From Candidatus Jordarchaeales archaeon (GTDB lineage Archaea > Asgardarchaeota > Jordiarchaeia > Jordiarchaeales > Freyrarchaeaceae): a stretch of DNA of 32,000 nt. This document shows positions 4,604 through 20,130 of the stretch, piece by piece. Every line of letters starts with the position of its first letter. Positions within the stretch are counted from its first letter, which is position 1. The position numbers and the translations under genes are program-made. A model generated the notes under the pieces. That model did no database searches and was not told where the DNA came from. It saw only the letters and a list, made by a program, of their open reading frames with translations. The stretch spans positions 90,001-122,000 of the forward strand of contig JAWCFL010000001.1 in NCBI GenBank assembly GCA_038858525.1, written 5' to 3'.

Positions 4604-4739
4604 TGCCTCGGCCGGGATTTGAATTCCCTTAGCTTTTTAAACAGCTACCCGGGTCAAGGGGTCGAGTGGGCAGGTTGTAAGCCTTGAGCCCCTTATGCTT
4701 GGCCGTTACAGCCTCTAAAGGTGACTACACCACCGAGGC
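4604..4739 (-). tRNA. tRNA-Glu(CTC) with three non-canonical introns: 16/17 (4706-4722), 34/35 (4666-4685), 53/54 (4624-4647)
   Basis: Removing 17+20+24 nt leaves a 75-nt cloverleaf GCCTCGG TG GTGT AGTCCGGCCAA GCAT A AGGGG CTCTCGA CCCCT TGAC CCGGG TTCAAAT CCCGG CCGAGGC A; BHB-like junctions; CCA not encoded. Confidence 0.92.
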
Positions 4740-6784: not shown

Positions 6785-6931
<147 letters not shown>

Positions 6932-19722: not shown

Positions 19723-19835
19723 TTATTGTTCCTCCTATTGAAAAAGGAAACTTAATGAGCGGAATAATTCACTTGAAAGGACGAAAAGAAAAAAGAATAA
19801 ATAACCTTTAGTCCGAAAGCTCTCTTAGGCAACGT

Positions 19836-20030
19836 GGGGGCGTGGTCTAGGTATCGGTGGCTTGCCCTCCGATAGGAGAACTTGGTATGAACCCGATAGG
19901 TGCTCTCCTACCGGGGTGCAATACCCTCAAAGAGGGGCGTGAGTCCTGCCTGGGGCGCAGAGCAGTGTAGAACCACTTTCTGCACTGCTAGCGTAAGCGG
20001 TCCCGAGTTCAAGTCTCGGCGCCCCCACCA
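19836..20030 (+). tRNA. tRNA-Pro(GGG) with four non-canonical introns: 15/16 (19851-19880), 24/25 (19891-19921), 25/26 (19923-19943), 42/43 (19961-19996); CCA encoded
   Basis: Removing 30+31+21+36 nt leaves 74 nt plus CCA: GGGGGCG TG GTCT AGCTTGGTA TGAT T CCTGC CTGGGGC GCAGG CGGTC CCGAG TTCAAGT CTCGG CGCCCCC A; every intron folds as a hairpin. The third intron's boundary could slide by 1-3 nt. Confidence 0.9.
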
Positions 20031-20130
20031 AATTCAGAATTTTCGCGTTTTGACAAGGAAATTCTTTAAAGGAAAATTTTAAAGTGGACTTGGTAGGAGT
20101 TAGCTTAAAGAGGTTACGTGGTGAATTATT

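Follow-up and report, generated by a model that had tools for sequence, protein, structure and literature searches.

The window analyzed here is a stretch of 32,000 nucleotides (nt), contig C1:90001-122000, from the 2.09 Mb genome (63 contigs) of a Candidatus Jordarchaeales archaeon, referred to below as G000. The plus strand between window positions 19836 and 20030 carries a gene for tRNA-Pro(GGG) that is split by four introns, two of which lie on either side of a single nucleotide (Table 1). The two ends of the gene, GGGGGCG at the 5′ side and CGCCCCC-A-CCA at the 3′ side, were read directly from the sequence. Excision of introns of 30, 31, 21 and 36 nt, located between tRNA positions 15/16, 24/25, 25/26 and 42/43, yields a canonical 77-nt product that ARAGORN calls as tRNA-Pro(GGG). 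Removal of the introns restores the cloverleaf: the spliced molecule has a 7-bp acceptor stem (GGGGGCG/CGCCCCC), a D arm reading GTCT-AGCTTGGTA-TGAT followed by U26, a 7-nt anticodon loop, CTGGGGC, with U33, a variable loop of 5 nt and the T-loop TTCAAGT, which matches TTCRANT. The D arm also agrees with its counterparts in Pro(TGG) and Pro(CGG), paralogs encoded by the same genome. A preliminary description of the locus had proposed a tRNA-Pro(GGG) with four introns and had counted 118 of 192 nt as intronic. Both statements stood up: the introns of the parse sum to 118 nt, the spliced product is canonical and each of the four inserts is missing from some relative (see below). Taken as a whole, the explanation that best accounts for the data, and which we consider likely, is that the segment is a single functional tRNA-Pro(GGG) gene, with a predicted precursor of approximately 195 nt and four introns of the bulge-helix-bulge (BHB) type.

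Table 1. Elements of the tRNA-Pro(GGG) gene and its flanks, in window coordinates.
Feature	Position	Strand	Description
A/T-rich box gaataaataacc	19795..19806	+	Lies roughly 30-40 nt upstream of the mature 5′ end; may be an archaeal TATA-type promoter element
Exon 1	19836..19850	+	Acceptor 5′ strand GGGGGCG, U8 G9, D-stem GTCT, A14 G15
Intron 1	19851..19880	+	30 nt, position 15/16; relaxed motif
Exon 2, CTTGGTATGA	19881..19890	+	3′ part of the D-loop (positions 16-21) and positions 22-24
Intron 2	19891..19921	+	31 nt, position 24/25
Exon 3, single T	19922..19922	+	U25 of the mature tRNA, pairing with G10
Intron 3	19923..19943	+	21 nt, position 25/26
Exon 4	19944..19960	+	U26, anticodon stem CCTGC, loop CTGGGGC, GCAG (positions 39-42); anticodon GGG at 19952-19954
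Intron 4	19961..19996	+	36 nt, position 42/43
Exon 5	19997..20030	+	G43, CGGTC as variable loop, CCGAG-TTCAAGT-CTCGG as T arm, acceptor 3′ strand CGCCCCC, discriminator A and encoded CCA
Two T4 runs ttttcgcgtttt	20041..20052	+	3′ of the gene; possible oligo-T terminator

The gene is present in a single copy, since a search of the whole genome returned one match. The same 195 nt are found with zero differences in two further public assemblies, which excludes an assembly artefact. A look-up of the adjacent protein, of the deacetylase family, yielded genome assemblies only. The gene escapes standard annotation. ARAGORN in its default mode found no tRNA in the window, and Rfam at its gathering score gave no match there. 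When introns were allowed, ARAGORN returned a tRNA-Leu(tag) with a 105-nt intron, a miscall. Four introns exceed the models of these tools. The sole decoder of CCY codons is reported by no standard finder in this genome. ARAGORN also called an intron-less "Pro(ggg)" elsewhere, at C27:20967-21041 (-); this candidate has mismatches in the acceptor stem, a poor T arm without a TTC loop and no match to RF00005, and is probably a false positive.

The occurrence of each intron was followed in a set of 11 distinct orthologs. Five of these come from a Jordarchaeum-like family that includes the source genome (f1), four from a Freyarchaeia-like family of the same order (f2) and two from metagenomes. The pattern used for scanning the metagenomes required intron 2, hence it was blind to spliced forms, and four of its eight matches were due to chance. 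Introns 1 and 2 are kept in all 11 orthologs, and in exon 2 the sequence TGGTATGA is invariant throughout, preceded by CT, CC or AT. Intron 3 is found in 10 of the 11. It is missing to the nucleotide from a genome of the same genus (G002; L005:1501-1670 (+)), which reads ...AAT-TCCTGCC at the corresponding position and retains introns 1, 2 and 4. Microhomology at the boundaries of this deletion amounts to one base only (T), and the deletion may reflect loss via a partly spliced RNA copy. Intron 4 is missing from all f2 orthologs, where GCAGG runs uninterrupted. Intron 2 does not occur in the G000 paralogs Pro(CGG) and Pro(TGG) or in Pro genes of other Asgard families, and a compact Pro(TGG) gene from a different Asgard family (L015) lacks intron 1.

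The f2 orthologs (L006:1171-1470 (-), L007, L008, L009:1331-1651 (+), L028 and L032, including the complete genome CP147778.1) were found to carry five inserts. Their introns 1-3 and one-base exon are the same as in the source genome; an intron in the anticodon loop, at 37/38, replaces the one at 42/43, and an additional insert of 28-31 nt, of approximate register, lies in the T loop. A four-intron Pro(GGG) gene of the f1 type was also present in a metagenome-assembled genome labelled "Thermoproteota archaeon" (L023, JAPDJY010000008.1), where it is identical to that of G004, a member of the family of the source genome belonging to a different genus. This is probably an Asgard genome under a wrong label.

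Introns 2 and 3 abut around T19922, which very probably constitutes an exon of one nucleotide and provides U25 of the mature tRNA. This T is invariant in 11 of 11 orthologs from the two families (alignment column 42) and is the sole nucleotide between the two introns in each of the ten orthologs that have both. In G002, the equivalent residue is contiguous with U26; the exactness with which intron 3 is absent from this genome indicates that T19922 is exonic. Position 25 is also a pyrimidine in Pro(TGG) (TGAT) and Pro(CGG) (TGAC), and with U25 in place all three isoacceptors share a D arm of the form GTCT...TGAY. The GT-R-Y-AAT junction is conserved, while the interiors of the introns diverge between families. 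All combinations of boundaries leaving an exon of 1-4 nt were then enumerated, with the mature length held constant. The one-nucleotide parse had the top score in three divergent orthologs (14, 14 and 13, versus 10 or less for the next best). These findings uphold what the preliminary description had stated, namely that T19922 is a one-nucleotide exon and that alternative boundaries giving an exon of 2-4 nt lack a good BHB. The predicted mature sequence around U25-U26 is GGUAUGAUUCCUGCC.

Each of the four introns can be fitted to a BHB motif. In G000, intron 1 is flanked by GTCT/GGAG, a helix in which three out of four pairs form, and by bulges AG^G and AA^C, with a 6-bp inner helix (TATCGG/CCGATA); its central helix has three of four pairs in ten of the 11 orthologs, which places it in the relaxed class, and all four in the remaining one (M032). 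The motif of intron 2 is the most regular, consisting of GTAT/GTGC with four pairs out of four, bulges GA^A and AA^T, as given in the preliminary description, and an inner helix of 4 bp. All four central pairs are preserved in 11 of 11 orthologs, and 40 of 40 cells are paired in an alignment of 10 sequences (A2). For intron 3, the exon strand TATG (19886-19889) pairs with CGTG; the bulges are A19890-T19922^A19923 and AG^T and the inner hairpin (CCCT/GGGG) has 4 bp. In this motif, the 5′ bulge thus spans intron 2. In G000, the central helix has four of four pairs once intron 2 is gone and three of four with intron 2 present; three or four pairs are formed in the ten orthologs carrying the intron when intron 2 is removed. 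Intron 4 is bordered by GCGC/GCGT, four of four pairs, with bulges AG^A and AA^G, and its central helix has three or four pairs among the orthologs that carry it. Whereas introns 1, 2 and 3 of G000 have inner helices in register with their motifs (6, 4 and 4 bp), the hairpin of intron 4 is offset by 2 nt, giving a relaxed geometry. Unconstrained RNAalifold predictions folded introns 2 and 3 as two separate hairpins, and six pairs across the two are preserved through two-sided changes.

The genes for the enzymes expected to act on such introns are present. The genome has two EndA paralogs, at C3:81835-82089 (-) and C43:5978-6235 (+). The protein from the first locus, of 191 aa, is alpha-like: its best relative of solved structure is the catalytic subunit of Aeropyrum pernix (3P1Z_B), with which it aligns free of gaps across the specific loop, including a lysine at the position of APE K44. 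This loop confers the ability to cut non-canonical or relaxed motifs and is conserved in TACK and Asgard archaea (PMC5829648). The protein from the second locus, of 198 aa, apparently misses the catalytic histidine in the aligned region and looks like a beta-like structural subunit. The pair would fit an (alpha-beta)2 enzyme. An RtcB ligase is encoded as well, at C1:35280-36587 (-) (match of 601 bits).

With T19922 forming an exon of its own, introns 2 and 3 would need two rounds of cutting and ligation, whichever goes first. This follows logically: U25 cannot be held in place by pairing, and cutting of both introns prior to ligation would set it free as a mononucleotide. The two introns are therefore expected to be removed sequentially. 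As to the order, comparison of the orthologs argues for intron 2 leaving before intron 3, which we regard as the probable course of events. The 3′ strand of the intron 3 motif has the form C-R-T-R, with the bulge AG^T after it. When intron 2 has been removed, this strand faces the exon strand TATG, itself followed by the bulge A-U^N. In this helix, 35 of 40 cells are paired, the only changes are from U.G to U-A, and the pair G19889-C19938 is invariant. Prior to removal of intron 2, the partner is formed by the last four bases of this intron (TGCA or TACA); here 21 of 40 cells are paired, and all ten orthologs have an A.C mismatch at the pair that adjoins the cleaved bulge. The helix available after removal is better than the one available before by at least one pair in ten orthologs out of ten.

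In the pathway that we infer from these comparisons, a two-subunit, (alpha-beta)2-type endonuclease would cut the introns and RtcB ligase would join the exons. Intron 2, the motif of which is complete in the primary transcript, would be excised first. Ligation of A24 to U25 would recreate the exon strand TATG-A-U^ required by the intron 3 motif, and intron 3 would be excised next, so that U25 would never lose its covalent link to at least one adjoining residue. The motifs of introns 1 and 4 are independent, and these two could be removed at any time. The predicted junction of an RNA that has lost intron 2 and kept intron 3 is GGTATGATACCC; that of an RNA that has lost intron 3 and kept intron 2 is GTGCAATTCCTGCC.

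Several observations weigh against this reading. Motifs with four of four central pairs plus one flanking helix are common by chance: the real transcript has 63 of them, shuffled sequences 50 +/- 10. Since they are no commoner than in the shuffles, the presence of a motif was not counted as evidence by itself, and more weight was given to the comparison with relatives. The exon strand being invariant, the central helices show one-sided changes only and no true covariation. Moreover, in ViennaRNA folding at both 37 and 70 C, the central helices of introns 1, 2 and 3 had low to near-zero probabilities in almost all splicing states, which makes folding a weak discriminator. The exception was the intron 3 motif, whose probability rises modestly after removal of intron 2 (to 0.05-0.6 in several orthologs); in G004 with intron 2 removed, the unconstrained optimum contains this motif. 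Two further points concern the order of splicing. The primary transcript of G000 can form a relaxed version of the intron 3 motif, in which three of four central pairs are joined by an outer helix of 3 bp and an inner one of 4 bp, and which a broad-specificity endonuclease might cut with intron 2 still in place. Furthermore, G002 has lost intron 3 precisely while retaining intron 2. If the loss occurred through a reverse-transcribed intermediate, an RNA without intron 3 and with intron 2 must once have existed.

These last two points lend some weight to an alternative that keeps the structure of the gene, one-base exon included, and leaves the order free. The primary transcript would then allow excision of intron 3 as well, by way of TGCA/CGTG and an outer helix GGG/CCT, with ligation intervening. 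The pre-removal motif of G000, G001 and G005 has three of four central pairs and both flanking helices, and the outer helix (G-C, G-C, G.U) is found in ten of ten orthologs. (alpha-beta)2 enzymes endowed with the specific loop do cut relaxed motifs (PMC5829648). As G002 shows, splicing of intron 2 is possible without intron 3, and the loss of intron 3 alone from this genome would fit an intermediate devoid of this intron. We nonetheless hold a free order to be unlikely. The pre-removal helix is the worse of the two in every ortholog, dropping to a single pair out of four in G010 and M028, and the mismatch next to the cleaved bulge is universal. In addition, the outer helix and the inner helix of intron 2 compete for the same run of G residues, and the paralogs point to the exon TATG as the ancestral partner of a 3′ strand of this kind. 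The preliminary description had gone further than the order favoured here, maintaining that the BHB of intron 3 forms only after removal of intron 2 and that splicing is obligatorily sequential. The better helix after removal speaks for the first statement, and sequential rounds do follow from the one-nucleotide exon. The word "only" is too strong, and an obligatory order is unproven, given the relaxed motif in the G000 transcript.

The paralogs provide independent support for intron 2 leaving first. Pro(CGG) and Pro(TGG) lie outside the window, at C13:31352-31509 (-) and C1:76214-76357 (+), respectively (L036, L035). Each has three introns, at 15/16, at 25/26 and in the T loop, and ARAGORN confirmed the spliced products; CCA is encoded in Pro(GGG) and Pro(CGG) and not in Pro(TGG). 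In five f1 genomes, both paralogs have a 25/26 intron that uses an uninterrupted exon strand, TATG-A-Y^, and in Pro(CGG) of these genomes TATG pairs with C-R-T-R at four positions out of four. Since the 25/26 intron of Pro(GGG) has this design in common with the paralogs, the simplest history would be that it is the older of the two and that intron 2 landed later in the 5′ bulge of its motif. On this history, intron 2 sits inside the motif of intron 3 and would have to leave first for the motif to be restored. The one-base exon could even be the footprint of the arrival itself, intron 2 having entered an existing splicing motif at the bulge opened by the endonuclease, for example by mis-cleavage, RtcB-mediated insertion of a free intron and copying back into DNA. 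We give this last proposal little credence, ranking it as quite unlikely. A younger intron inside the motif of an older one, as suggested by the paralogs, bears on the open question of intron gain.

Two other parses would do away with the one-base exon or displace it. The first, which we consider very improbable, has three introns, with a single 52-nt intron (19892-19943) in place of introns 2 and 3. It would be defined by TATG/CGTG and bulges AA^C and AG^T, a motif that the primary transcript can form with four of four central pairs and 2-bp flanks on both sides, and A19891 would become nucleotide 25. This would place A (G000, G005, M032) or G (the other orthologs) at position 25, neither of which pairs with the invariant G10, whereas paralogs and compact relatives have T or C there (TGAT, TGAC). 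The inner helix of such an intron must break the two hairpins supported by covariation. Moreover, the parse leaves unexplained the invariant GT-R-Y-AAT junction (40 of 40 cells paired with GTAT in the 10 sequences) and the sequence of G002, where the register of intron 2, with a 9-bp inner helix, gives U25-U26.

The second parse shifts the register by one, using GTGC/GCGT in the primary transcript and cutting at 19921^19922 and 19942^19943, so that T19922 would be lost and G19943 would become nucleotide 25. Its central helix is complete in G000 and G001 (30 of 40 cells over the alignment) and the outer helix is partly conserved, but G25 would face G10, no inner helix follows the 5′ bulge, the parse takes a G that pairs in the hairpin of intron 3 itself in ten of ten orthologs, and it conflicts with the mature sequence implied by G002. 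We regard it as still less probable than the 52-nt intron. Finally, the notion of an unspliced, decaying pseudogene or an assembly artefact, which would account for the failure of the standard finders (ARAGORN in default mode, Rfam at its gathering score), is hardly credible for the only gene with a GGG anticodon, one with invariant exons and with compensatory substitutions in the intron hairpins across two families, found identical in three assemblies and accompanied in this genome by genes for the splicing machinery.

The splicing order favoured here, with intron 2 leaving first, has a parallel of sorts in the Thermoproteales, in which, according to work by Tocchini-Valentini et al. from 2009, along with Sugahara et al. 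from 2007 and 2008, nested pre-tRNA introns are reported to be processed in order by a broad-specificity (alpha-beta)2 endonuclease. In the present gene, too, the motif of one intron may be completed by the prior removal of another and the ligation of its flanks. Unlike in that nesting, introns 2 and 3 lie side by side around T19922, have hairpins of their own and are not inside one another; intron 2 interrupts the exon-side bulge of the intron 3 motif and not intron 3 itself, and the host belongs to the Asgard phylum. One-nucleotide exons reportedly occur in fungal mitochondria between organellar self-splicing introns. Such introns apparently interrupt protein or rRNA genes and follow another splicing mechanism, and the case would not concern tRNA. 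In nuclear pre-tRNAs of Cyanidioschyzon merolae, which have up to three ectopic introns, the order of removal was defined by reverse transcription-PCR of the intermediates (Soma et al. 2013, PMC3728597). Here the differences are that the organism is a eukaryote, that each motif can fold independently, the order being set by motif stability or position, and that there are neither abutting introns nor a one-base exon (PMC3728597).

Within the Asgard archaea, introns interrupt 92-95% of tRNA genes in Atabeyarchaeia and Freyarchaeia, frequently more than one to a gene and frequently at non-canonical sites (Valentin-Alvarado et al. 2024, PMC11291895). A later census (Goswami et al. 2026 preprint, 10.64898/2026.10.13.758758) added the Jordiarchaeaceae; it recorded as many as five intervening sequences in one gene and a pair of EndA paralogs in most genomes. 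The gene described here has much in common with the tRNA genes of Freyrarchaeaceae and Jordiarchaeaceae: the clade, the kind of introns, the non-canonical sites in the D arm, the two-subunit EndA and the failure of gene finders to see the introns. A tRNA with four introns is thus nothing new in this clade. Neither a one-nucleotide exon nor the splicing order is mentioned in PMC11291895 or in 10.64898/2026.10.13.758758, and full-text literature searches found no description of a one-nucleotide exon or of abutting introns in archaeal tRNAs. The census of Goswami et al. considered insertions of at least 10 nt and grouped boundaries within 3 nt as one position (10.64898/2026.10.13.758758); presumably introns 2 and 3 would appear in it as a single insertion. 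If censuses that merge boundaries do count such a pair as one, intron numbers in these Asgard lineages are too low.

Two families of the order that stands nearest to the published "most interrupted" tRNA sets have retained this arrangement. A one-base exon represents a limiting case for protein-catalysed RNA splicing, in which cleaved fragments are held by the RNA fold only. As a mononucleotide cannot be held in this way, ligation must intervene between the two rounds of cleavage, making the gene a natural substrate for studying how EndA and RtcB are coordinated. On the quite unlikely proposal that the one-base exon is a footprint of intron arrival, the arrangement would further impose a strict cut-ligate-cut hierarchy in vivo, involve the smallest exon of any protein-only splicing system and offer a reporter of the coupling between EndA and RtcB.

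None of the four introns showed C/D-box guide motifs on inspection by eye. The sequence CCGATAGG occurs both in the hairpin of intron 1 (3′ arm, 19869-19876) and in that of intron 2 (5′ arm, 19893-19900), so that the 5′ arm of intron 1 could also pair with intron 2. The repeat extends to 9 nt in G001 and G002 and is missing in family f2; a repeated 8-mer within 200 nt is not unlikely by chance. Elsewhere in the window, two further candidate tRNA genes lie on the minus strand, at 4604-4739 and 6785-6931; both stretches open with an acceptor 3′ end and CCA in reverse complement.

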